Of a DNA stretch of 64,000 nt, positions 12,356-37,328 are shown piece after piece. The translations under genes were made by a program, and so were the position numbers. Positions within the stretch are counted from its first letter, which is position 1, and every line of letters begins with the position of its first letter. Where the stretch lies: NCBI RefSeq assembly GCF_044324875.1, contig NZ_CP172185.1. The stretch is one strand, 5' to 3'. Below the pieces are notes generated by a model. The model was given only the letters and a program-made list of their open reading frames with translations. It was not told where the DNA came from and did not search any database. This stretch comes from Escherichia coli. GTDB lineage: Bacteria; Pseudomonadota; Gammaproteobacteria; Enterobacterales; Enterobacteriaceae.

Positions 12356-12415
12356 TTGAACGAGCCGGATGAGCAGTTTTCATCCGGCAATAATTCACAA
12401 GTACACGAGATGGTA

Positions 12416-12946
12416 TCAAATAAACCCCTGTTTATTATAAAGTTCTTCAGCGAGAGCTTCCCCGTGCTCATCGAAAAAAGCATCGGCGATAGTTAAATTT
12501 TCTGCCTTAGGATTTGCCGTTATTTTGCTACCATTGGCATCAAATTCGAGCGCGATAGCGGTCTCCGAACCCCACCAGTAATAATAAATTAGCGCAAAAT
12601 TATTTTCCCCTGGCGTAATAAACTTCTCGATTCCCCGCACACAGGCCATGAGTGGCATGAAGATTTCATAGCTCTCTGAGAGAAATATGTGATCCATCGT
12701 GACTATCTGTGTTTCTTTATTAAAGTTGATATGTTCGGCATAAATATTCTTTTCACTTTCACCAGAATTACAAGCTGCAAGATTGTTAAGCATTTTTGCA
12801 GGATCGCCGTACAACCGCTGCTTCTCGATAAACCATGGCAACCAGTCGTCATGGTCTTTGATATTTGTTGCTGGTGAATGGAAAAACTTCTCGAGGTTAC
12901 TCTCGGTAATATGTGCATGAAGAAAAAAGGAAGCCGGTTCACTCAT
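12416..12946 (-). CDS. Hypothetical acidic cytoplasmic protein (176 aa), not recognised
   Basis: Intact ORF with no signal peptide or TM segment; sits in a segment I do not recall from the K-12 mtr-yhbW junction; no family assignment possible by eye. Confidence 0.6.
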   Translation of the reverse strand: MSEPASFFLHAHITESNLEKFFHSPATNIKDHDDWLPWFIEKQRLYGDPAKMLNNLAACNSGESEKNIYAEHINFNKETQIVTMDHIFLSESYEIFMPLMACVRGIEKFITPGENNFALIYYYWWGSETAIALEFDANGSKITANPKAENLTIADAFFDEHGEALAEELYNKQGFI

Positions 12947-13103
12947 AATGATTTTCTCTGGTAATAAGTCGATTTGTTCATTTCTCTGTTTGGCGATGAT
13001 AAAACGATGACTATTTTATAAAAGTACAGAACTGGACCTTTCATCTATTTCATATCATAAGAAAATATATACTTGAACTGGCTCAGAATAAGCGGAATAC
13101 GAA

Positions 13104-13823
13104 ATGGGGCGTAAAGGACTACTTGCTATTGTATTGTTGAGCCTGTTTATCGCCATGATTTTTCAATTTTTCTGGCCTGCCCCACACGATGAACACGTTT
13201 TCCTGCCAGTTGAAAAACCTGTCGCACCGTCTTTAAAAATCATTCATCCTGGTGACCAGTTATTTATCCGCATTCTGAAAGCGGAAGATAAGCTGGAACT
13301 GTGGGCAAGCACCAACAACAAGCCTTACGAACTCTATAAAACCTGGACTATATGCGCGTGGTCTGGTGGCTTAGGGCCAAAACACAAACAGGGGGATGGT
13401 AAAAGCCCGGAAGGTTTTTATGCCACCAACAAAGAGTTGCTTAACCCAAACAGCCGCTATCATCTGGCATTTAATATTGGTTACCCGAATGCTTACGATC
13501 GGGCAAACGGCTACACCGGTGATTTCATTATGGTTCACGGAAACTGCGTTTCGGCGGGCTGCTATGCCATGACCGATGCTGGTATTGAAGAGATTTATCA
13601 ACTGGTGGCGCAGGCGCTGAATAGCGGGCAGAAGAGCGTGCCGGTGCATATCTTCCCGTTTGCGATGGACGAAGAAAATATGCGCCAGGCGCAGGTATGG
13701 CCGGAATATAATTTCTGGCGTATGTTGAAGCCCGGCTATGATTACTTTGAAAAAAATCGCCGATTGCCAACCATCACCGTTGAAAACCGGCGTTATAAAA
13801 TCAGCCCAACAACTCTTCCTTAA
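13104..13823 (+). CDS. YafK/DpaA-like L,D-transpeptidase-fold (YkuD) protein with N-terminal signal/anchor (239 aa)
   Basis: N-terminal hydrophobic segment; strong similarity to my recollection of E. coli YafK (SGGLGPK, GDxKSPEGFY, [14 protein letters not shown], [15 protein letters not shown] with conserved His/Cys, GYDYFE). Confidence 0.75.
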
Positions 13824-24928: not shown

Positions 24929-25792
24929 ATGAAACAACACCAATCGGCGGATAATTCTCAGGGCCAGCTTTACATTGTACCGACGCCAATCGGCAATCTG
25001 GCGGATATCACCCAGCGTGCGTTGGAGGTATTACAGGCCGTTGATCTGATTGCCGCCGAGGATACGCGTCACACCGGTTTATTGCTGCAACATTTTGGGA
25101 TTAATGCTCGGTTGTTTGCGCTGCACGACCATAACGAACAACAAAAAGCCGAAACGCTGCTGGCGAAGCTGCAAGAGGGGCAAAACATTGCGCTGGTTTC
25201 CGATGCCGGAACGCCGCTAATTAACGATCCTGGCTACCATCTGGTGCGTACCTGCCGTGAAGCGGGGATTCGCGTGGTGCCGCTACCCGGGCCGTGTGCT
25301 GCTATCACTGCGTTAAGCGCCGCGGGTTTACCATCCGATCGTTTTTGTTATGAAGGCTTTTTACCTGCCAAATCAAAAGGCCGCCGTGATGCGCTAAAAG
25401 CCATTGAAGCGGAGCCGCGCACGCTGATTTTTTATGAATCTACCCACCGTCTGTTAGATAGCCTGGAAGATATCGTTGCGGTATTAGGCGAATCCCGCTA
25501 CGTGGTTCTGGCGCGTGAGCTGACCAAAACCTGGGAAACCATTCACGGCGCGCCCGTTGGCGAGCTGCTGGCGTGGGTCAAAGAAGATGAAAACCGTCGC
25601 AAAGGCGAAATGGTACTGATTGTCGAAGGCCATAAAGCACAGGAAGAAGACTTACCCGCCGATGCCCTGCGCACGCTGGCGCTGTTGCAGGCAGAACTGC
25701 CACTGAAAAAAGCGGCGGCGCTGGCAGCAGAAATTCACGGCGTGAAGAAAAATGCGCTGTATAAGTATGCACTGGAGCAGCAGGGAGAGTGA
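24929..25792 (+). CDS. rsmI: 16S rRNA (cytidine1402-2-prime-O)-methyltransferase RsmI
   Basis: Tetrapyrrole-methylase-fold protein; translation matches YraL/RsmI. Confidence 0.92.
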
Positions 25793-25841
25793 TTACAGGC
25801 GTCGCAGCAGGAATAGCGTTGCAACGCCTGTAGCAGGCGAG

Positions 25842-26609
25842 TTAACGACGACACATCTCATCAATCATGCATGTGAAATAGTTATGCAGCCATAAAAATG
25901 AAGCCGGGATAGCGGTAGAGACTTTAGCCGTGAGAAAACGTTCTGTCGCATCCTGCTTTCCTTCGCCAGTCACCAGTAACAAAACTTCGCGGGCATTGAG
26001 AATATCCTTCAGGCCTAAGGTGATCCCACGAGTCACGGGACGGCCCGCAGTTTTTAACATCTCATGTTGCTGTGTTCTGGCATCAAGTTGACTGATATGG
26101 CAGGCCGGTTGCAGGTTTTCTCCCGGTTCGTTCAGCCCAAGATGACCGTTTTTCCCCAATCCGAGAACGCATAAATCCAGACCGCCTTTGCGCGCAATCA
26201 GGTTCGTTACCCGTTCGCACTCTGTCTCATTTATCTCTTCGGAGCGAAAGCTGATGAGTTGGTCTTCACGCAGCCCCAGCGGCTGCACGATATGCTGTTG
26301 TAGGAAAGTTTCGCAGGTGCCAGGCATCGTTAATGGCAGATCCACCCATTCGTCGAGCTTCACGAAGGTGAGCTGGCTGACATCAACCTGCTGCTGGTGG
26401 ATTTTTTCTACCAGATAATGATACGTCAGTAATGGCGTGGCTCCGGTCGCCAGGCAAATCACGGCATCCGGTTTGCTACGGATCACGGCCAATAAATATT
26501 CGCTGGCACGTTCACTTAACGCCATATAGTTTTCAACTTGCTGAAGGGTTTGCACAGGATGAAATTCCTTAAGTAAAGAGGCACCACCAGACGCAGTGCC
26601 TCGTTCCAT
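25842..26609 (-). CDS. agaI: Galactosamine-6-phosphate isomerase/deaminase AgaI
   Basis: NagB-family fold; last gene of the agaSYBCDI operon; N-terminal start not verified. Confidence 0.85.
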   Translation of the reverse strand: MERGTASGGASLLKEFHPVQTLQQVENYMALSERASEYLLAVIRSKPDAVICLATGATPLLTYHYLVEKIHQQQVDVSQLTFVKLDEWVDLPLTMPGTCETFLQQHIVQPLGLREDQLISFRSEEINETECERVTNLIARKGGLDLCVLGLGKNGHLGLNEPGENLQPACHISQLDARTQQHEMLKTAGRPVTRGITLGLKDILNAREVLLLVTGEGKQDATERFLTAKVSTAIPASFLWLHNYFTCMIDEMCRR

Positions 26610-27401
26610 TTACAAAATTCCGAATGCGGAACAAACAATAGAGAGCACAAAAGTCACGCCGATTAACAGCACCGGATGCGCTTTTTTCACCCGCAGGAAG
26701 TAATACATCAGCAGGGTGTAGGCCATCGGTAAAATATTCGGGAAGACTTTATCGAAGAAATCCTGCTGCAGCGCGACGCTGTGGGTACTGTCGATGTCAA
26801 ACGATGTCACCACGTTAATATGAACATACGAAGCGATCAGCCCGCCGATTACCGTGATCCCGAGGATGGTTGCCGAACGGGCAATCATCTGCGAGTTCTC
26901 TCGCACTTTATCGATCGCCTTCACGCCGACTGAATAACCGACGTGGGTCCAGCCGACGCGCAGGAAAAAGATAAGCAGGTAAACGGCGAAAAATAGAATC
27001 GGCCCCAGCAAGTTTCCCTGGCTGGCAAATGATGAGCAAATTCCCGCCATAATCGGCAATAAGGTAAACCAGAAAATCGCATCGCCAATCCCGGCGATTG
27101 GGCCAAACAGTGCTACTTTGAGGCCTTTAATGGTGTCGCGGTTTTCTCCTTTTTCTTCCATCGAAATTAATAACCCCATCAGGAATCCGACCAGATTCGG
27201 GTGGGTATTAATAAATTCGAGGTTATCTTTCATCGCCGCGCTTAGGCCCGGTTTGTCGTCCTTATAAATCTTTTTCAGGATCGGCAACATCGCCCAGGTA
27301 AAACCGCCCGCCTGCATCCTTTCGTAATTAAAGCTCGCTTGCAGCAGTGACGAACGAAAGCCCAGACGGGTGATATCTTTTTTACTGATTTCAGATCCCA
27401 T
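26610..27401 (-). CDS. agaD: PTS galactosamine-specific EIID component AgaD (263 aa)
   Basis: Mannose-family IID membrane protein; internal ATG (MGSEISKKDI...) chosen; track ORF extends upstream into agaC. Confidence 0.88.
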   Translation of the reverse strand: MGSEISKKDITRLGFRSSLLQASFNYERMQAGGFTWAMLPILKKIYKDDKPGLSAAMKDNLEFINTHPNLVGFLMGLLISMEEKGENRDTIKGLKVALFGPIAGIGDAIFWFTLLPIMAGICSSFASQGNLLGPILFFAVYLLIFFLRVGWTHVGYSVGVKAIDKVRENSQMIARSATILGITVIGGLIASYVHINVVTSFDIDSTHSVALQQDFFDKVFPNILPMAYTLLMYYFLRVKKAHPVLLIGVTFVLSIVCSAFGIL

Positions 27402-28194
27402 TGCTGTAGTCCTCTTCTTCATTTTTACTGGCAACGGGCTGCGGTTGCGCTTGCTGCCGGGATTTCGCATTGAAAAACTCATACACCGCAAAGCCTGCGC
27501 CCAGTACGGCAACCGGCAACAGGTTGCTGACCTGGATGTAGCAAACAAACAGGAAACCGGCGATCAGGTAAGGGATATATTGCGCTTTGAACATCACGCG
27601 CAGCAGCAAGCCAAAACCAACGGCAGGCAGAATACCGCCAGCCACTTCAAAGCCGTGGGTCAGCCAGGCGGGCATCGCTTTCACCAGCGCCTGCATCGCC
27701 CCCTGTGCCAGGTAAGTACAGAGGAAAGCAATCACCGCATACGCTGAAGCGACGATGAGCATCGTTGTCCAGTTAAGTCGGGAAAACGCTGCCGTATCCG
27801 CCTCTTTTGCGCATTTATCGGCTTTGGTCATAAATAATGAGAAAGCGGAATAGAAGAACAGAATGACGTACTGCATTAACAAACTAAACGGCAGGCCAAG
27901 ACCAATTGCCGTTTTGGCATCAACGCCCGTAGACCATGCAATGACAGTGGTCATCAGACCCGCCATAATCGGGTTGGGCGGCTGAACACCACCTGCAGGG
28001 GTTAATCCGGCGAAAGCCAACTCTGTCAGACCACCGGTAATTAAGCCAGTCTGAATATCACCGAGAATAGCGCCAGTTAGGGTACAAACGATTATCGGGC
28101 GGAATAAAAATAAGGCTTCCAGCCAAAAATCAATCCCCAGAACGAAAACTAACGCCGCCAGGGATAATCCCTGAAGTAGGGTTATTTCATGCAT
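27391..28194 (-). CDS. agaC: PTS galactosamine-specific EIIC component AgaC (267 aa)
   Basis: Mannose-family IIC membrane protein. Confidence 0.9.
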   Translation of the reverse strand: MHEITLLQGLSLAALVFVLGIDFWLEALFLFRPIIVCTLTGAILGDIQTGLITGGLTELAFAGLTPAGGVQPPNPIMAGLMTTVIAWSTGVDAKTAIGLGLPFSLLMQYVILFFYSAFSLFMTKADKCAKEADTAAFSRLNWTTMLIVASAYAVIAFLCTYLAQGAMQALVKAMPAWLTHGFEVAGGILPAVGFGLLLRVMFKAQYIPYLIAGFLFVCYIQVSNLLPVAVLGAGFAVYEFFNAKSRQQAQPQPVASKNEEEDYSNGI

Positions 28195-28232
28195 TTTTAT
28201 TACCTCAAACCAATATTAAGGCGATTTTAGAT

Positions 28233-28709
28233 TTAGTCAGGGATTTGTTCTTTTTGATCGCCAGGGACGTCCTGAATGAAAACATTCACGCCACGTTGTT
28301 TAATAAAACGTAAGTCCGTGAGATCCTGGTCATCGACATAAACTTTACTGCTGATTTGCTTTTTCCCTTCCGAGAAATGCATATTGCCGACGTTGACATC
28401 TTTCAGGTCAATACCACCTTCTACCAATTTACGTACCGTTTGTGGCGTACGGCAAATCAGGAAGATCTTTTGATGCGGTGCAGCTTTGCCGATGACGTTA
28501 ATGGTTTTTTCGATAGTAAAGAAACGAATGCCAAAGCCGTAGGTTTCTGCGGTAATACTCATTAATTTCTGTTGAATATCATCGTTAGCGACAACATCAT
28601 CCACAACTACCAGCAGATTTGCACCGATGGTAGATGTCCAGGTCACGCCAACCTGACCGTGAACCAGACGGTTATCAATACGGGTTAAGAGAATATTTGG
28701 ACTGCTCAT
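28233..28709 (-). CDS. agaB: PTS galactosamine-specific EIIB component AgaB (158 aa)
   Basis: Mannose-family IIB (MSSPNILLTRIDNRLVHGQVG...). Confidence 0.9.
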   Translation of the reverse strand: MSSPNILLTRIDNRLVHGQVGVTWTSTIGANLLVVVDDVVANDDIQQKLMSITAETYGFGIRFFTIEKTINVIGKAAPHQKIFLICRTPQTVRKLVEGGIDLKDVNVGNMHFSEGKKQISSKVYVDDQDLTDLRFIKQRGVNVFIQDVPGDQKEQIPD

Positions 28710-28875
28710 TGTGTAATCCTCACCATAAAGTTGAATAATATAATTTTTTTAAATATATTATTGTTGCGATATTTTACTGATGTATTTATTAAGGTTTAGT
28801 TATCTCCTTTACCATTAAGGCACTCCCCGATATTAATCGGGAAGTACATTGGGATAAATCATAAAAAACTAATGA

Positions 28876-29748
<873 letters not shown>

Positions 29749-30903
29749 TTATGCCTGCCACGGATGAATGATTACGCCTTGCACCACGCGGTTAACGGTG
29801 CCACTGGCTGATGGGGTATCCGGCGTATTGCCCATGTGCAGCGACTGCATCAGTGCAAACGTCTGGGCGTACATCAGGAAGCAAAATGCCTGCTCAACGT
29901 CGATAAAGTGACGTGACGGTGGCAGGATGATATGTGGACCGGCAGCGACGATGTCGCTGCTTTCCGCGGCGATGGCGATTACACGCATTGCCTGGTTGTC
30001 ACGGCGAAGTTCAGCCAGCAGATCAAGATCATACTGACGGGTGTAAGGGTGGCTGGAGACAAATACCACCACCAGCGTTTCGTTATCGACCAGCGATTTC
30101 GGGCCATGACGGAATCCGGTCGGGGAATCATAAAAGGCCGCCAGTTTACCCGCCGTCAGTTCCAGTACTTTCAGCGCCGACTCGCGTGCTGCGCCCTGTA
30201 AGCCACCGCTGCCGAGATAAACGATCCGTTTCCACGGTGCGTAACCAAACACACCTTCGCTGAAATCGCCCAGTGAGGTCAGGATCGCCTGGCAACGATC
30301 CGCCACGTCGCGGAAGCTCTGGCTGTTGATCGTCTCAGGTGCGAAAACCGCGAGGCAGCTGGCCATCATGGTGGTAATGCTGCTGGTCATCGCAAAGCCG
30401 CGATCGTGCGTTTCTGCGGGCATCAGCAGGGCAAACGCGTTGTCGCTGTTGATCGCGTTTTGGTAAAGAGCGCCCGCTTCGTTGCAGGTGATCGGCAGGT
30501 GATAGCACTCGGGTACAAATTGATTTGCCAGTTCCACGGCGGCGACGCTTTCCGGGCTGTTGCCGGATCGACCGAAGGAGATCAACAGCAGTGGATGAGC
30601 TGGATTCAGGTAGTCCATCGGATTGGTGACCAGATCGGTGGTCGGTACGGCGCTGAAGTTTTTACCGGTATGGCTGGCGAGCCACGGCGCGATGATGTCA
30701 CCGATAAATGCCGAGGTTCCGGCTCCGGTCAGGATTACCCGCAGATTCTCTTTGCGCAGTAACGGTTCAAGGAAGTTATTGAGCGCGGAACGTAGCGCGT
30801 CGATGTTGGTGAGTGAACGGATCCATGCGCGAGGCTGATGGCGGATCTCTTCTTCAGTCCATGTACCGGTTGCGGCAGCAGCAGGGGTGTAATTTTCTGG
30901 CAT
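29749..30903 (-). CDS. agaS: SIS-domain galactosamine-6-phosphate deaminase/isomerase AgaS (384 aa)
   Basis: Tandem SIS domains; first gene of the agaS operon. Confidence 0.92.
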   Translation of the reverse strand: MPENYTPAAAATGTWTEEEIRHQPRAWIRSLTNIDALRSALNNFLEPLLRKENLRVILTGAGTSAFIGDIIAPWLASHTGKNFSAVPTTDLVTNPMDYLNPAHPLLLISFGRSGNSPESVAAVELANQFVPECYHLPITCNEAGALYQNAINSDNAFALLMPAETHDRGFAMTSSITTMMASCLAVFAPETINSQSFRDVADRCQAILTSLGDFSEGVFGYAPWKRIVYLGSGGLQGAARESALKVLELTAGKLAAFYDSPTGFRHGPKSLVDNETLVVVFVSSHPYTRQYDLDLLAELRRDNQAMRVIAIAAESSDIVAAGPHIILPPSRHFIDVEQAFCFLMYAQTFALMQSLHMGNTPDTPSASGTVNRVVQGVIIHPWQA

Positions 30904-31122
30904 AACTCAATCCTTAGTCTGATGAACTTGACGTCGGGCGTTGTCGCTTTCGCTTACCTTTCGTTTCATTTCATTTGGTGATGTCTTTCGTTGATTAAAA
31001 TCTATAGAAAAGAAACTGAAAGTTCAATGGAGAAAAAAGAAATAAAACGAAATTTGTGATCGTTGAAAGAAAAGACAAGGGAAGATTAAAGAATTGCATG
31101 ATGACGTTGCTATGTGCACCGA

Positions 31123-31180
31123 TTGCCGGATGCGGCGTACCGTAGGTCGCATAAGACGCGTCAGCGTCGCATCCGACACC
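31123..31180. repeat. REP-type palindromic element in the agaA-agaS spacer
   Basis: gccggatgcggcg...cgtcgcatccgaca inverted REP cores. Confidence 0.5.
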
Positions 31181-31253
31181 GCTGCACAGATCAAAAAGAA
31201 AGAAAAAGAAAGGCCTTACGGGGGAAGTGAAGGCCCAATAAAGGAGCAAACCA

Positions 31254-32408
31254 TCAAAACGAAGCTAATTGACCCTGAATCCAGATTTGTTGCACATGCA
31301 GCCCGCTATCCAGCGCAACGACGCTGGCGCGTTTGCCCGGTTTAAGCGATCCCAGAACATCATCAACACCCAGCATACGCGCCGGATGCAGCGACGCCAT
31401 ATGGATGGCTTCCGCAGGCGTTACGTCCGTCAACTCGACCATATTGCGCACTGCCGCATCAACAGACAGCGTACTGCCCGCCAGTCCACCGGACGCGGTA
31501 CGGACAACGCCACCGTGCATCTGCACTTCTTCGCCACATAACGTATAGCGACCATCCGGCATCCCGGCTGCCTGCATCGCGTCGGTGATCAGCACGATTC
31601 TCTCTTTTGCACAGCAACAACACAGCGACATCGCCGCCGGATGCACATGATGACCATCGGCTATCAGTTCCAGCCAGGCGCGCTTGTCCGTTAATCCCGC
31701 GCCAACCATTCCCGGTTCGCGGTGATGTAAACCTGTCATCCCGTTATAGCAATGCACCAGGCCGTCGGCACCAGCGTCAAACGCGGCACGGGTTTGTTGC
31801 CAGGTCGCCGCGCTATGCCCCAGCATCACCCGTACGTTTTGCTGTTTAAGATGGCGGATGGCCTGCAATGCCCCTTCTTTTTCCGGTGCCAGCGCTACCA
31901 CGCGCAAGGTGTGCTGAGAAACGGCAATCAATTGATCCAGCTCGGCAATTTCCAGCTCGCGAAACAGCTCCGGCGGATGCGCGCCTTTATTCTGCGGCGT
32001 GAAGTACGGTCCTTCGAGATAACTCCCCAGTACTTGCGCACCAGGTCCGCCGCGTTGGCAACGTTGAGCAATACGTTTCAGCGCCGCATGAATGGTATTA
32101 AGCGGCGCGGTTACGGTGGTCGGTAACCAACTGCCGACACCTTCGCGTGCCTTGTGCATTGCCAGCTTGTCGAGCACATCCGGCGCGTCATCCATTACAT
32201 CAACGCCCGCACCACCGTGTACATGGGTGTCGATGTAAGCGGGGCAGAGCAGTTCCGCATCGCGTTCAGTCACGCCCACTGGAATCGGTTCGATTGCTGC
32301 GATTACACCGTCAGCAATACGCAACTGATGGTCATCGAGCCATCCCTCTTCAGTCAGCAGCCTTCTGGCGCGCAAAACGGGTGTCATATTCCTTCCTCGA
32401 CCGGACAT
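31254..32408 (-). CDS. agaA: N-acetylgalactosamine-6-phosphate deacetylase AgaA, full length
   Basis: NagA-family amidohydrolase with metal-binding His motifs; full-length here (K-12 carries a truncated agaA as I recall); start may be an internal ATG. Confidence 0.88.
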   Translation of the reverse strand: MSGRGRNMTPVLRARRLLTEEGWLDDHQLRIADGVIAAIEPIPVGVTERDAELLCPAYIDTHVHGGAGVDVMDDAPDVLDKLAMHKAREGVGSWLPTTVTAPLNTIHAALKRIAQRCQRGGPGAQVLGSYLEGPYFTPQNKGAHPPELFRELEIAELDQLIAVSQHTLRVVALAPEKEGALQAIRHLKQQNVRVMLGHSAATWQQTRAAFDAGADGLVHCYNGMTGLHHREPGMVGAGLTDKRAWLELIADGHHVHPAAMSLCCCCAKERIVLITDAMQAAGMPDGRYTLCGEEVQMHGGVVRTASGGLAGSTLSVDAAVRNMVELTDVTPAEAIHMASLHPARMLGVDDVLGSLKPGKRASVVALDSGLHVQQIWIQGQLASF

Positions 32409-32818
32409 TCTTCATGGCAGCGGCCTAACTCGTCCACCAAACTGGTCAGCCCACGGTGTCCACACTCCAGCGCCTGCACACGGAACTCTTCACCGCTTAA
32501 CCCTTCGCGCTCCAGCACCATCTCCAGTAGCAGTTGCAAATTGGTGCCGGTGATCACTTCACAGCCCGGTTTTTGCATCGCCAGCGTTGAAGCTACGCGA
32601 AACGGCGTGCCGCCCAGCAAATCTGTCAGAAAAACAATGCCGTCTTCACAATCCAGTTGGGCGAAGGCCTCTTCAAGCTGCGATGTAAGCAGCGCGGTGC
32701 TTGAGGTTTCCGGAAAATCGATGGCGATAAACTGCGATTGCTCGCCGAGGATTTGCTTCATTGCTTTTTCCATGCCGCTGGCAAATCCGCCATGCCCTGT
32801 CAAAATAATACTTAACAT
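32384..32818 (-). CDS. agaF: PTS N-acetylgalactosamine-specific EIIA component AgaF (144 aa)
   Basis: Mannose-family IIA domain (MLSIILTGHGGFASG...). Confidence 0.85.
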   Translation of the reverse strand: MLSIILTGHGGFASGMEKAMKQILGEQSQFIAIDFPETSSTALLTSQLEEAFAQLDCEDGIVFLTDLLGGTPFRVASTLAMQKPGCEVITGTNLQLLLEMVLEREGLSGEEFRVQALECGHRGLTSLVDELGRCHEECPVEEGI

Positions 32819-32835
32819 CTAATACCTCATTGTAT

Positions 32836-33720
32836 TTAAAGGAAATGACAGAATTTACCGACGATACCGAGAACCACGGTAACTGCAATCAGGCGCAGCG
32901 GACTCCAGCCGCGGCGTACCAGCCAGAACATGGTCAGGGTGTAGACCAGCGGTAAGAAGGCAGGCATCAGTTTGTCGATAACATCAGCCTGTAACTTAAC
33001 CACTGCATCGCCAGCGGTGATTTCCAGCGTGGTGCTTAAACGAACATAGGTTGCTACCAGCGCGCCGATTACCGTCATCCCAACGATTGACGCAGCATGG
33101 CCGACTTTTTTGGTATTCGCTTTAATGAGTGGAATCGCCGCCACGCCCATGCGGTAAGCATAATGCGCCAGACCAAAACGCAGCCCCAGGTGTACCACGT
33201 TAAACAGCACAATAAAGACGACTGCGCCAAGAATAGAGCCTTGTAGCGCGAGGCTTGCGCCTATCCCGCCACAAATCGGCAGTAGCGTTAGCCAGAACAT
33301 CGCATCGCCAATCCCGCCGAGCGGCGCACCGACGGCAATTTTGGTGCTCTGAATACTGTTAACGTCCTGCTTAGAACGCTCCATCGCAAGGATAATGCCG
33401 ATAACAAACGTCACCAGAAACGGATGGGTATTGAAGAAACCCATATGCCCTTTCATGGCGCGCGCCAGGTCGCGTTTATTAGTGTGGATCTTTTTCAGAG
33501 CAGGCAGCAGACCGTACAACCAGCCAGAAGCCTGCATACGTTCGTAGTTAAAAGACGCTTGTAACAGCATGGAACGCCAGGCGACGCGGTTGATATCTTT
33601 TTTCGTCAGCTCTGCGCCAATGCTCTGATCTTCATAAACGTTTTCATTAACGCCTGTCAGCAGTGTTTCTTCGTTTTCACTGACGTTCGGCAGGGTGGTT
33701 TGATTAGATGCCATCTTCAA
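32836..33720 (-). CDS. agaE: PTS N-acetylgalactosamine-specific EIID component AgaE
   Basis: Mannose-family IID membrane protein, paralogous to agaD. Confidence 0.88.
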   Translation of the reverse strand: MKMASNQTTLPNVSENEETLLTGVNENVYEDQSIGAELTKKDINRVAWRSMLLQASFNYERMQASGWLYGLLPALKKIHTNKRDLARAMKGHMGFFNTHPFLVTFVIGIILAMERSKQDVNSIQSTKIAVGAPLGGIGDAMFWLTLLPICGGIGASLALQGSILGAVVFIVLFNVVHLGLRFGLAHYAYRMGVAAIPLIKANTKKVGHAASIVGMTVIGALVATYVRLSTTLEITAGDAVVKLQADVIDKLMPAFLPLVYTLTMFWLVRRGWSPLRLIAVTVVLGIVGKFCHFL

Positions 33721-34483
33721 ATTCCTCTTTCTGTGCCGCAGGTTGAGTCGGTTCAGGAGATTTACGCAGCAGGTCGATCAGCGCCATCGCCAGCGCGGCG
33801 GCAGCAATAGCCAGCACCGGTAACTTGAGCCAGGCTGCGGCAACAAAGCCCAGGATGAAGTAGGGGATGTAGACGTTTTTCATCATGATTTTCAGCAGCA
33901 CGGCAAAACCGATTGCTGGCATGATGCCGCCCGCGACGCCGAGGCCGTCGATTAATCGTTGCGGCAGGACATCAATGATGGTTTTGGCATGTTCTGCGCC
34001 GAAGTAGATAGGCAGGAAAGCGCAGAGAAAATAGAAAGTGCCGAGTGCCAGCAGTGCCAGATAGTTCACGCGTTCAATGCCGTGTGTATCGGCGTTCTCC
34101 GCCATCCGGTCGCAGCGGGACATTACGCCAGACATCACCGAGAACAGGAAGGTAATCCCCATCTGTACTGCGACAGCGAAAGGTACGGCGACACCGACCG
34201 CGACATCGGGTTTCACGCCAGTAGTAATGGCAAACGCCGTGCCGACGATAGTACCGATAATCACGTTAGGCGGTTGTGCGCCTGCCAGCGGGGCCAGCCC
34301 CATCCACACCAGTTCCAGCGTACCGCCGGTTAAAATACCGGTATGCAGATCGCCAAGTACCAGCCCGACTAACGGGCCGAGGACCACCGGGCGGTGCATA
34401 TGGGTTAAGCCGTTAAACATATCCAGGCCAGCGATAAAGGCGATAATGCCCAACGCGAATGCCTGCAACAGACTGATTTCCAT
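33704..34483 (-). CDS. agaW: PTS N-acetylgalactosamine-specific EIIC component AgaW, full length (259 aa)
   Basis: Mannose-family IIC membrane protein, paralogous to agaC. Confidence 0.88.
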   Translation of the reverse strand: MEISLLQAFALGIIAFIAGLDMFNGLTHMHRPVVLGPLVGLVLGDLHTGILTGGTLELVWMGLAPLAGAQPPNVIIGTIVGTAFAITTGVKPDVAVGVAVPFAVAVQMGITFLFSVMSGVMSRCDRMAENADTHGIERVNYLALLALGTFYFLCAFLPIYFGAEHAKTIIDVLPQRLIDGLGVAGGIMPAIGFAVLLKIMMKNVYIPYFILGFVAAAWLKLPVLAIAAAALAMALIDLLRKSPEPTQPAAQKEEFEDGI

Positions 34484-34493
34484 GATGAATCCC

Positions 34494-34967
34494 TCAAAGT
34501 AATTTAAAGAGGTCCACAGCAGGCTCTGTCGGGACGCCCTGAACGAAGCATTCCACCCCAGCGGCTTTCAGGTCGTTAAATGCTGCGATATCGCCCGCAT
34601 CCACAGAAACCGTTTTGGCGATTTGTTGCTTGCCATTGGCGTAGTGCATATTGCCAACGTTAATGCGATTCACCGGAACGCCACCTTTCACCAGCGTCAG
34701 GAAATCGGCAGGTGTTTTACAAACCAGCAGGATTTTCTGTCGATCGGCGGCGCGATGAATGTTGTCGATGACTTTTTGCAGCGTCCAGAAACGTACGGCG
34801 ATCCCTTCTGCCAGTACCATTTCCATCAGGTTTTGTTGTACCGGATCTTCGGCAACCTCATCGTTGGCTACCAGCACCAGATTTGCCCCCGCAAATCCGA
34901 CCCACTGAACGCCGACCTGACCGTGAATCAAGCGTTCATCAATCCGGCTTAAAACAATATTTGGCAT
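34494..34967 (-). CDS. agaV: PTS N-acetylgalactosamine-specific EIIB component AgaV (157 aa)
   Basis: Mannose-family IIB (MPNIVLSRIDERLIHGQVG...); internal ATG chosen. Confidence 0.88.
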   Translation of the reverse strand: MPNIVLSRIDERLIHGQVGVQWVGFAGANLVLVANDEVAEDPVQQNLMEMVLAEGIAVRFWTLQKVIDNIHRAADRQKILLVCKTPADFLTLVKGGVPVNRINVGNMHYANGKQQIAKTVSVDAGDIAAFNDLKAAGVECFVQGVPTEPAVDLFKLL

Positions 34968-34989
34968 AGCGTGTTCCTCTTTGTTTTGC

Positions 34990-36270
34990 TTATTGGCCTT
35001 CACAGGCTGTGTGGTACTGCGCCAGGATGTCCTGAATATGGTTGATAATGAGTTCCCGTGGCGTCGGTTGCAGCTTGCCGGAGCGAACTTTCACGTATTG
35101 CAGCGGCAGATACTGGCTGATGAGCGGTAGCGGAATTGGTGAATCCGCCAGATTACGAACCAGATGAGCGAAAGCGTCATCAATCTGGCTGTCCGGCCAG
35201 TAATAGCGCACGCGATCCGAGTAGCTATAACCACGCGCCAGGCGACGTGCGTTGCCGTCACCGTGGTAGTGGCTTTGCCAGTATTCCGGGCGGTCGAGCA
35301 TCACGTTTTCCAGCACCTGACGCAGACCGGAACAGGCTTTCGCTGGTACCAGTTCTTCTTCAATCGCCGCCAGAGAGAACAGAGCTTCACGCAGGGCGAA
35401 GGTCAGCGCCGGGCCAACTTTCAGAATGGCAAAGTGGTCAATCACCAGCTGGCGCAGCGATTGCGGCGTTTGATAATCGGTAGAGTGCGCTTCGAAAATC
35501 AGCGTTTCGTAGTTTTCGACCATCTGGCTTAAGGCGCTCGCTTTGGCGGGCTGATAATCAATAACGTTGGTGTGATCGAATTCGACGCCGGGTTGAACCA
35601 CCAGGGCAATGATGCGTGACCAGATGGCATTCAAACCTTGCTTTTCAAAGGCGTGACGATGGGCTTCCAGCGTGGCGCGGGCGGCATCCGGCGTGGTGAC
35701 CGCCAGCTCGCTTAAGGTTTCATGCGCGCCGCCAGGTACCGGTACTTCGGTACCAATGACATACTCCAGATCGGCTTCGCCAAAGTGTTCAAGACAGGTT
35801 TCTTCCGCCACTTTCGCCAGACGTGCGGCGCGTTCAGCCACGATGTCATCAGTTAAGGGAATTGGATCGTCCTGACAGGACATGCTGCAATCAAGGTGAA
35901 TTTTTTTGAATCCTGCCGCCACGTAGCTTTTAATCAAATCATCGGCATTGGCCATTGCCTGAGCGGCTGGCAGGTTTTGCCAGCGGTTTGGCCCCAGATG
36001 GTCGCCACCCAGAATCAACGCATCCTGTGGGAAATTCAACGAGTCGGCGAGCTGACAAACAAAGCCGCGAAAATCGGCGGGCGTCATTCCGGTATAACCG
36101 CCGAACTGGTCCACCTGATTGGAGGTTGCTTCAATCAGTAACGGCGTTTGGTTTGCACTGGCGTAGCGGATTGCAGCTTCCAGCACCAGCGGATGTGCGG
36201 AACAAACGGCATAAATCCCATTTGTTTTGCCCTCTTTGTGCTGTCTCACCATTTCTGTCAGATGTTTCAC
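34990..36270 (-). CDS. kbaZ: Tagatose-6-phosphate kinase-like protein KbaZ/AgaZ (426 aa)
   Basis: GatZ/KbaZ family; first gene of the agaZVWEFA operon. Confidence 0.92.
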
Positions 36271-36518
36271 TTTCCTCTCCAGTTCAGATTACTGCGATAT
36301 TAATCTTTCGTTTTGTTTCAGTTGATACTGCGCCATGGTGAGATAAAAATAAAACGAAAGATAATAGTTTTCTGATCTGATTCACAAAAGAAACATAATG
36401 AAAGCCACTGAAACGAGAGTAGCTTGCGCCAATGGGTAAGGTGGGCTTGCATTTGCTTAATAGAAAGGCGTTAATAGGCAAAACGAAATGAAACGAAAGT
36501 TTTACGAAAGGACTTACT
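36271..36518. promoter_or_regulatory. Divergent kbaZ/agaR control region with repeated AgaR-operator-like motifs
   Basis: Multiple copies of (a)aacgaaag / ctttcgttt-type repeats (aaaataaaacgaaag, atgaaacgaaag, tacgaaag), typical of DeoR-type AgaR operators. Confidence 0.55.
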
Positions 36519-37328
36519 ATGAGTAATACCGACGCTTCAGGTGAGAAGCGAATGACAGGCACCAGCGAGCGACGAGAACAGATCATTCAGCGTCTGCGAC
36601 AGCAAGGGAGTGTGCAGGTTAACGATCTGTCGGCATTGTATGGCGTATCTACTGTGACGATCCGCAACGATCTGGCGTTTCTGGAAAAGCAGGGGATCGC
36701 TGTGCGTGCCTATGGCGGCGCGTTGATCTGCGATAGCACGACGCCGCCAGTCGAGCCATCAGTGGAAGATAAAAGCGCGCTGAACACCGCGATGAAACGC
36801 AGCGTTGCGAAAGCTGCCGTTGAGTTGATTCAGCCAGGTCATCGGGTGATCCTCGATTCCGGGACCACCACTTTTGAGATTGCTCGTCTGATGCGCAAGC
36901 ACACTGACGTAATTGCGATGACCAACGGTATGAACGTGGCTAATGCGTTGCTGGAAGCGGAAGGCGTTGAGCTGCTGATGACCGGCGGGCATTTGCGCCG
37001 TCAGTCGCAATCTTTTTACGGCGATCAGGCTGAGCAATCGCTGCAAAATTACCACTTCGATATGCTGTTTCTTGGTGTAGATGCGATCGATCTGGAGCGC
37101 GGCGTCAGCACGCATAATGAAGATGAAGCCCGTTTAAACCGCCGGATGTGCGAAGTTGCGGAACGGATCATCGTGGTCACCGATTCCAGTAAATTCAATC
37201 GTTCCAGTTTACATAAGATCATTGATACTCAACGTATCGACATGATCATTGTTGATGAAGGCATTCCTGCGGATAGCCTGGAAGGGCTGCGAAAGGCTGG
37301 GGTTGAAGTGATTCTGGTCGGGGAGTGA
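36519..37328 (+). CDS. agaR: DeoR-family transcriptional repressor AgaR (269 aa)
   Basis: N-terminal HTH and C-terminal DeoR sugar-binding domain; divergent from kbaZ. Confidence 0.93.

Follow-up and report, generated by a model that had tools for sequence, protein, structure and literature searches.

An empty yraHIJK site between rsmI and agaI in Escherichia coli: probably an old, ancestral-type allele of a known fimbrial polymorphism

Between the genes agaI and rsmI, Escherichia coli K-12 carries the yraHIJK fimbrial operon, whereas in the 64-kb stretch of E. coli DNA analyzed here (hereafter the window) the same two genes are separated by a mere 49 bp. The question raised by this locus is whether the operon was never acquired by the lineage of the window or was removed from it by a clean deletion, two options that the first-pass annotation of the window had left side by side. 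Alignment of the junction with K-12 and other lineages favors an ancestral-type empty allele and speaks against clean deletion, given the junctions found in relatives and a core sequence that is unmatched in yra-bearing genomes; the alignment further reveals that the alleles differ inside the ends of both genes. We consider it very likely that the window carries an old empty allele of the ancestral type, that the yra-bearing state is derived, and that the two together represent a known presence/absence polymorphism.

The junction and its allele-specific core

The genes on both sides of the spacer are orthologs of rsmI (yraL) and agaI, as indicated by matches to equivalog models and by identity to the K-12 proteins. 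On the plus strand, rsmI (24929..25792) encodes a 16S rRNA (cytidine1402-2'-O)-methyltransferase of 287 aa that matches the NCBIfam equivalog NF011570 with 629 bits (cut-off 502) and is 100% identical to its K-12 counterpart, with a C-terminus (...EQQGE) that is one residue longer than that of K-12. On the minus strand, agaI (25842..26609) encodes a galactosamine-6-phosphate isomerase of 255 aa that matches the NCBIfam equivalog NF007291 with 471 bits (cut-off 271) and is 96% identical to the K-12 protein; its C-terminal tail, ...NYFTCMIDEMCRR, is confined to the yra-less allele. The open reading frame listing, together with the NCBIfam matches, bears out the earlier description of two convergent stop codons exactly 49 bp apart, and the spacer between them (25793..25841) is the empty yra site. 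RefSeq annotates a junction identical to that of the window in the same manner in strain TUM1886, and does likewise for CFT073.

The presence of yraHIJK between these genes in K-12 is confirmed by the MG1655 annotation, where the order is agaI (b3141)-yraH-yraI-yraJ-yraK-rsmI, with rsmI (b3146) on the opposite strand and 5,449 bp from stop to stop. The claim that the operon is missing from this position in the window likewise holds: the number of fimbrial subunit, chaperone and usher genes between rsmI and agaI is zero, and tblastn searches (E <= 1e-3) detected no homologs of YraH, YraI, YraJ or YraK in the whole 64-kb window.

The difference between the two alleles extends beyond the presence or absence of the operon. 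Megablast searches and pairwise alignments delineate an allele-specific core (25786..25884) that runs from the final 7 bases of rsmI across the spacer into the final ~43 bases of agaI, and that is swapped in K-12-type genomes for about 5.5 kb containing yraHIJK. Roughly 90-100 bp are thus specific to the window allele with respect to K-12, and the breaks between the alleles cut into the last codons of both rsmI and agaI instead of lying between intact genes. On the rsmI side, homology to K-12 stops after CAGCAGGG, so that the window protein ends in ...QQGE and the K-12 protein in ...QQG. On the agaI side, homology stops after ...LWLH, beyond which the window reads NYFTCMIDEMCRR and K-12 reads SNFICLINT; the final ten codons of agaI align without gaps between the window and K-12 and are strongly diverged, being AT-rich in K-12. 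A 5-bp microhomology, GCTGC, noticed by eye at both breakpoints is too short to mean anything.

Several features of the surrounding DNA are recorded here as independent observations. The window contains a complete aga/gam cluster (25842-37325) in which 13 of 13 genes (agaR, kbaZ, agaVWEF, nagA/agaA, agaS, kbaY, agaBCD and agaI) are intact; K-12 has a deletion across agaW-agaA. In TUM1886, the junction of which is 100% identical to that of the window, agaD is interrupted by an internal stop that the window gene does not have. Between mtr and yhbW, the window has about 1.3 kb (12357-13804) in excess of the closest complete genome (GMF065), with a 176-aa ORF (12416-12946, minus strand) that has no match in Pfam and a 239-aa ORF (13104-13823, plus strand) with a YkuD L,D-transpeptidase domain (E 1e-6). 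Over a 22-kb stretch of core genome (14000-36000), the best identity to the window among 5,426 complete E. coli genomes is 99.1%; either the source lineage has few complete genomes to represent it, or it is mosaic in this region.

Distribution, origin and age of the alleles

Among the 5,426 complete RefSeq E. coli genomes that constitute our population sample, the junction is contiguous over 1,049 bp in 1,835, and a 90-bp portion of the core (window 25786-25875) is found in 1,861, once in each and, in every genome among the matches listed, at agaI|rsmI. DNA of the K-12 yra interval is present in 3,523 genomes, in 3,264 of which at least 80% of the interval is covered. The junction thus occurs in about 34% of the genomes and yra at the site in about 65%; a third allele, with a yra-like operon, accounts for 2. 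The counts for yra and for the core add up to 5,384 of the 5,426 genomes (3,523 + 1,861), which is compatible with mutual exclusivity of the two without proving it. The scenario in which K-12 and most strains would share the 49-bp junction is therefore false, and the empty-site junction recurs as an allele rather than being private to the source strain.

Across the approximately 1,850 E. coli genomes that bear the junction, the core is 92-100% identical to that of the window, and in 569 genomes the identity is at least 99%. The B2 strain CFT073 is annotated with agaI (768 nt), 49 bp and rsmI (864 nt); Nissle also carries the core, and a spacer of 49 bp is further found in RMDEC465, GN02323, BH100 and C4, as well as in CFT073, Escherichia sp. 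E1V33, E. coli E69 and E. albertii. Carriers of yra include K-12, BL21 and O157:H7, O111:H8 and O121 strains. This distribution agrees with published reports: yra genes are among those specific to the A/B1 group in UPEC isolates (PMC4128348), adhesin profiling found the yra cluster to be variable (PMC11184843), and yraHIJK is listed for the strains W, K-12, B and Crooks (PMC3032704). A text search found no mention of Yra in the main text of Wurpel et al. 2013 (PMC3559732).

On the rsmI side, the megablast match to the window ends at 25785 in every yra-bearing genome among the matches listed (H15-H39), and on the agaI side homology resumes at 25885 in the one match listed (H40). The identity of the breakpoints in every listed yra-bearing genome and in Escherichia whittamii argues for a single origin of the yra-bearing allele.

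A scan of species-representative genomes for AgaI yielded 6 loci, in which gene order was established by tblastn with the K-12 proteins. In E. albertii (L005), Escherichia sp. E1V33 (L003) and E. coli E69 (L004), agaI and rsmI are adjacent across a 49-bp spacer, and the hairpin, the QQGE end of RsmI and the ...DEMCRR tail of AgaI are all as in the window. E. whittamii (L006) possesses yraHIJK, with 83-90% amino acid identity to K-12, and Escherichia sp. MOD1-EC7003 (L007) has a four-gene fimbrial operon in the same order that is only 55-65% identical. Outside Escherichia, agaI and rsmI are adjacent in Trabulsiella odontotermitis (L008), where agaD-agaI faces rsmI-lpoA-yraN across a 102-bp REP-like spacer, and the neighborhoods of more distant AgaI homologs show that agaD-agaI converges with rsmI-lpoA-yraN-diaA-dolP in Citrobacter farmeri (52-bp spacer) and Lelliottia amnigena (39-bp spacer); in all three, fimbrial genes are absent from the agaI|rsmI site. 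All yra-less Escherichia have the QQGE end of RsmI, as opposed to QQG in K-12, Citrobacter and Trabulsiella. The spacers of Escherichia, Citrobacter, Lelliottia and Trabulsiella cannot be aligned with one another, so that the orthology of the empty site across genera is an orthology by synteny alone.

Two further observations were made on relatives of this locus. The third allele at rsmI|agaI, a four-gene fimbrial operon in the yraHIJK order with 55-65% protein identity to the K-12 Yra proteins, occupies L007:9778-15167 in Escherichia sp. MOD1-EC7003 and L022:1400-7476 in E. coli 18KM2445; among the 5,426 genomes, DNA of this allele (about 80% identical) was found only in the ivory gull strain MEW and the dog strain 18KM2445. 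In Salmonella enterica serovar Infantis (L015:6470-7720 and L016), an orphan agaI homolog, 73% identical, adjoins an opposite-strand fragment that covers 58 aa of the RsmI C-terminus, and the pair is flanked by the gat (galactitol) cluster at one end and by Rhs/T6SS genes at the other; it has the appearance of a piece of the agaI|rsmI junction that was transplanted there.

Under parsimony, the direct adjacency of agaI and rsmI in three non-Escherichia genera and in E. albertii implies that the empty architecture is ancestral and that yra is an insertion. The window would accordingly carry the empty (yra-less) allele, with the aga/gam operon placed tail to tail with rsmI across a short hairpin spacer. 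In the K-12-type allele, the derived one, a yraHIJK chaperone-usher cassette would have taken the place of the ~90-100-bp core, bringing with it a promoter region rich in AT and a terminator of its own for rsmI, and rewriting the last codons of both flanking genes. The GC content of the yra region is 0.30 in the agaI-yraH intergenic/promoter region and 0.43-0.51 in the genes, compared with mostly 0.50-0.58 in the flanks. The empty allele of Escherichia is itself not an unaltered relic: the extra Glu codon (QQGE) is at least one derived feature, so that the allele is ancestral in architecture without being unchanged in sequence.

Neither state appears to be young. Between K-12 and E. whittamii, divergence at four-fold sites amounts to 0.43-0.45 in yraH-K; of the six flanking genes, five lie at 0.20-0.32 and the outermost, yraN, at only 0.09. 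The excess of yra over the flanks shows that yra was not transferred recently between the two species. Since the empty allele is common to E. coli and E. albertii and the yra allele to E. coli and E. whittamii, both states are old, and E. coli inherited, or repeatedly re-imported, a long-standing polymorphism. Furthermore, yra in E. whittamii and the divergent operon of MOD1-EC7003, which is near saturation at four-fold sites (0.58-0.72), show that fimbrial occupancy of the site is very old as well. The two alleles coexist in E. coli, and homologous recombination within the conserved flanks has probably carried them from one lineage to another. The swine strain ETEC4075 fits such an exchange: over 22 kb its identity to the window is 98.9%, but in the 90-bp core only 92%, a figure equal to that of Nissle. 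A lineage that exchanged yra for the empty allele in this way would be indistinguishable from one that never had yra.

The same signs of antiquity could be accommodated by an ancient loss, in which the ancestor of Escherichia had a yra-type operon and the empty allele arose once, through a deletion with a small replacement, and then spread by homologous recombination within and between species. Under this reading, the near-saturated MOD1-EC7003 operon would attest to deep occupancy, the yra-bearing alleles would have retained the outgroup-like ...QQG end of RsmI while the empty allele acquired QQGE, and the mosaicism of the ETEC4075 flanks and core would be a trace of the spread. However, the adjacency of agaI and rsmI in E. 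albertii and in the three other genera roots the empty architecture by parsimony, and the yra region has typical marks of acquired DNA, namely a lower GC content and an AT-rich boundary extending into the tail of agaI. We accordingly regard ancient loss as improbable.

Far less probable still is that yraHIJK was cleanly deleted in recent times, in this lineage alone, from an ancestor resembling K-12, with the 49-bp junction as the scar. Such an event would be in keeping with the presence of yra at this position in K-12 and in about 65% of the genomes, with the insertion sequences found in yra of O157:H7 and other strains, and with independent rearrangements of the locus such as that in E. coli EC25 (L009:4001-5233), where 136 bp separate agaI from a downstream IS1, immediately beyond which come an mtr fragment and deaD. 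The latter is an IS1-mediated rearrangement that took yra through yhbW out of this position and is a true scar, unlike the window junction, which is common to about 1,850 E. coli genomes, E. albertii, E1V33 and E69. Moreover, a short-word blastn comparison of the core with the 5.4-kb agaI-rsmI interval of K-12 returned no significant match beyond the flanks common to both, the remaining matches being 8-11 nt long and fortuitous, and the 90 bp of the core had no match among the E. coli genomes with yra. Given that the core and both gene tails have no counterpart in yra-bearing genomes, the junction could not have been obtained by plain excision from a K-12-like allele; it is not derivable from the edges of the yra-bearing allele, the window holds no yra remnant, and a test for a deletion scar thus failed. 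We therefore retain the reading of the window junction as an ancestral-type empty allele.

The spacer hairpin

The spacer had also been described as forming a hairpin, and this description stands. RNA folding of the imperfect palindrome at 25793..25833 yields a hairpin on either transcript, with an outer 10-bp stem (25793-25802 with 25824-25833) and an inner 5-bp stem (25804-25808 with 25818-25822). The folding energy is -22.4 kcal/mol on the plus strand and -23.9 kcal/mol on the minus strand (z = -4.2 and -5.9, respectively), and none of 200 dinucleotide shuffles folded as well.

Comparison of 8 distinct sequences provides suggestive evidence, and no more than that, of a hairpin structure maintained by selection. 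The 16 proposed pairs are standard pairs in 89% of the cells, and when the 3' partners are slid by one to three columns pairing falls to 23-51%. A compensatory change from G-C to A-U is found at one pair only (in E69), G-C is replaced by G-U in three sequences, and the stem is mismatched close to its foot in several strains, CFT073 included; in the covariation control, 65 of 500 shuffles did as well.

Compared to a canonical intrinsic (Rho-independent) terminator, the GC-rich stem-loop is present and the U run is absent. On neither strand is the stem directly followed by a T-run (at least 5 T in 8), the sequence being AGCAGGCG on the plus strand and ATCACTCT on the minus strand, and a scan for promoter and terminator consensus sequences called no terminator at 25793-25841. 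The yra-bearing alleles of K-12 and E. whittamii have a conserved hairpin of their own followed by a T-run just 3' of rsmI, between yraK and rsmI: in K-12 (L001:9434-9475) it reads GCGTTGCG...CGCAACG, then TCTTCTTTT, and it is also present in E. whittamii (L006). The insertion thus appears to have given rsmI a canonical terminator that is missing from the empty allele. The octamer AGCGTTGC, which is common to the window hairpin and the K-12 rsmI terminator, was judged to be a chance match.

The best argument for a function of the hairpin is that a stem-loop recurs at this tail-to-tail junction with an unrelated sequence each time. The spacers of Citrobacter and Lelliottia each fold into an unrelated hairpin of about -20 kcal/mol at the same position, and that of Trabulsiella contains an apparent inverted REP-like repeat, as read by eye. 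Published work offers two precedents: positioned bidirectional termination at convergent genes depends on a stem-loop (bioRxiv 10.1101/2022.10.23.513370), and palindromes, including REPs, between convergent genes act as terminator-stabilizers and dual 3'-UTR regulators (bioRxiv 10.64898/2026.03.23.713779). Considering its structure, its position and the hairpins of other genera, the window hairpin is probably a shared 3'-end element of the rsmI and agaI transcripts. It could serve both convergent transcripts as a barrier to 3'-exonucleases that stabilizes the mRNAs, as a site of positioned termination, or as both.

A scan of 25600-26000 against Rfam (E <= 10) assigned no family, returning only noise of 12-14 bits, and assignment of the palindrome to the REPs (repeated extragenic palindromes) was rejected, given its single place per genome and the lack of an Rfam match above noise. 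By inspection, the palindrome does not fit the REP consensus. That the hairpin might be a mobile or repeated element (REP or MITE) that lies in the spacer by chance, rather than a 3'-end element specific to this locus, is hardly credible despite the REP-like inverted pair at the same position in Trabulsiella and the frequent occurrence of REPs that act on 3' UTRs between convergent genes (bioRxiv 10.64898/2026.03.23.713779), since each of the 1,861 genomes with the 90-bp core has it at a single place, and no Rfam family matches.

Significance and comparison with known systems

For the source strain, the implication is that one cryptic adhesin locus of the K-12 type is missing at this site, as it is in the B2 strains CFT073 and Nissle; beyond the description of the strain, the finding of an empty site matters little. 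Both the polymorphism and the junction are already known from annotated reference genomes and the adhesin literature. The only mildly new point is that the site exists in three or more allelic states within Escherichia, and that the alleles break within the final codons, close to the stops, of two core genes. At rsmI|agaI, K-12 represents the derived state, which calls for caution when K-12 serves as the reference for synteny, and the site is a tidy example of the reshuffling of the fimbrial repertoire through flanking homology.

A broader scheme can be put forward only tentatively, and we would not bet on it in its entirety. Under this scheme, rsmI|agaI would be a long-lived site of cassette exchange with at least three states (empty, yraHIJK, and the yra-like operon with 55-65% identity), the alleles of which predate species splits or repeatedly cross them and are swapped via the last codons of the flanking genes. 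The locus would then embody a trans-species adhesin polymorphism, and the hairpin would be kept by selection as a shared 3'-end element devoid of a U-tract.

With respect to known systems, the window palindrome resembles the REP elements that act as dual 3'-UTR regulators (bioRxiv 10.64898/2026.03.23.713779) in its position and palindromic nature, and differs from the REP families in being single-copy in each genome. It shares with the bidirectional terminators mapped by SEnd-seq (Wang et al., bioRxiv 10.1101/2022.10.23.513370) a single GC-rich stem-loop between convergent stop codons that can form on either transcript; unlike these, it has no flanking A-tract or U-tract, and its function here is a matter of inference only. 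The yraHIJK operon of K-12, a gamma-type chaperone-usher system known as a variable ('cryptic') fimbrial operon, occupies the same site as the window spacer. The two loci are alike in being bounded by agaI and rsmI (yraL), with agaD, lpoA, yraN, diaA and dolP beyond, and unlike in that a hairpin spacer of 49 bp stands in the window where K-12 has 5,449 bp, and in that the final codons of the flanking genes differ. The closest parallel is found in the UPEC strain CFT073 (B2; NC_004431.1, 3,726,660-3,726,708), in which the architecture, the length of the spacer, AgaI of 255 aa, RsmI of 287 aa and the hairpin are all as in the window, and the spacer differs by a few substitutions, among them a change from G to T (alignment column 53) that opens a pair near the foot of the stem.
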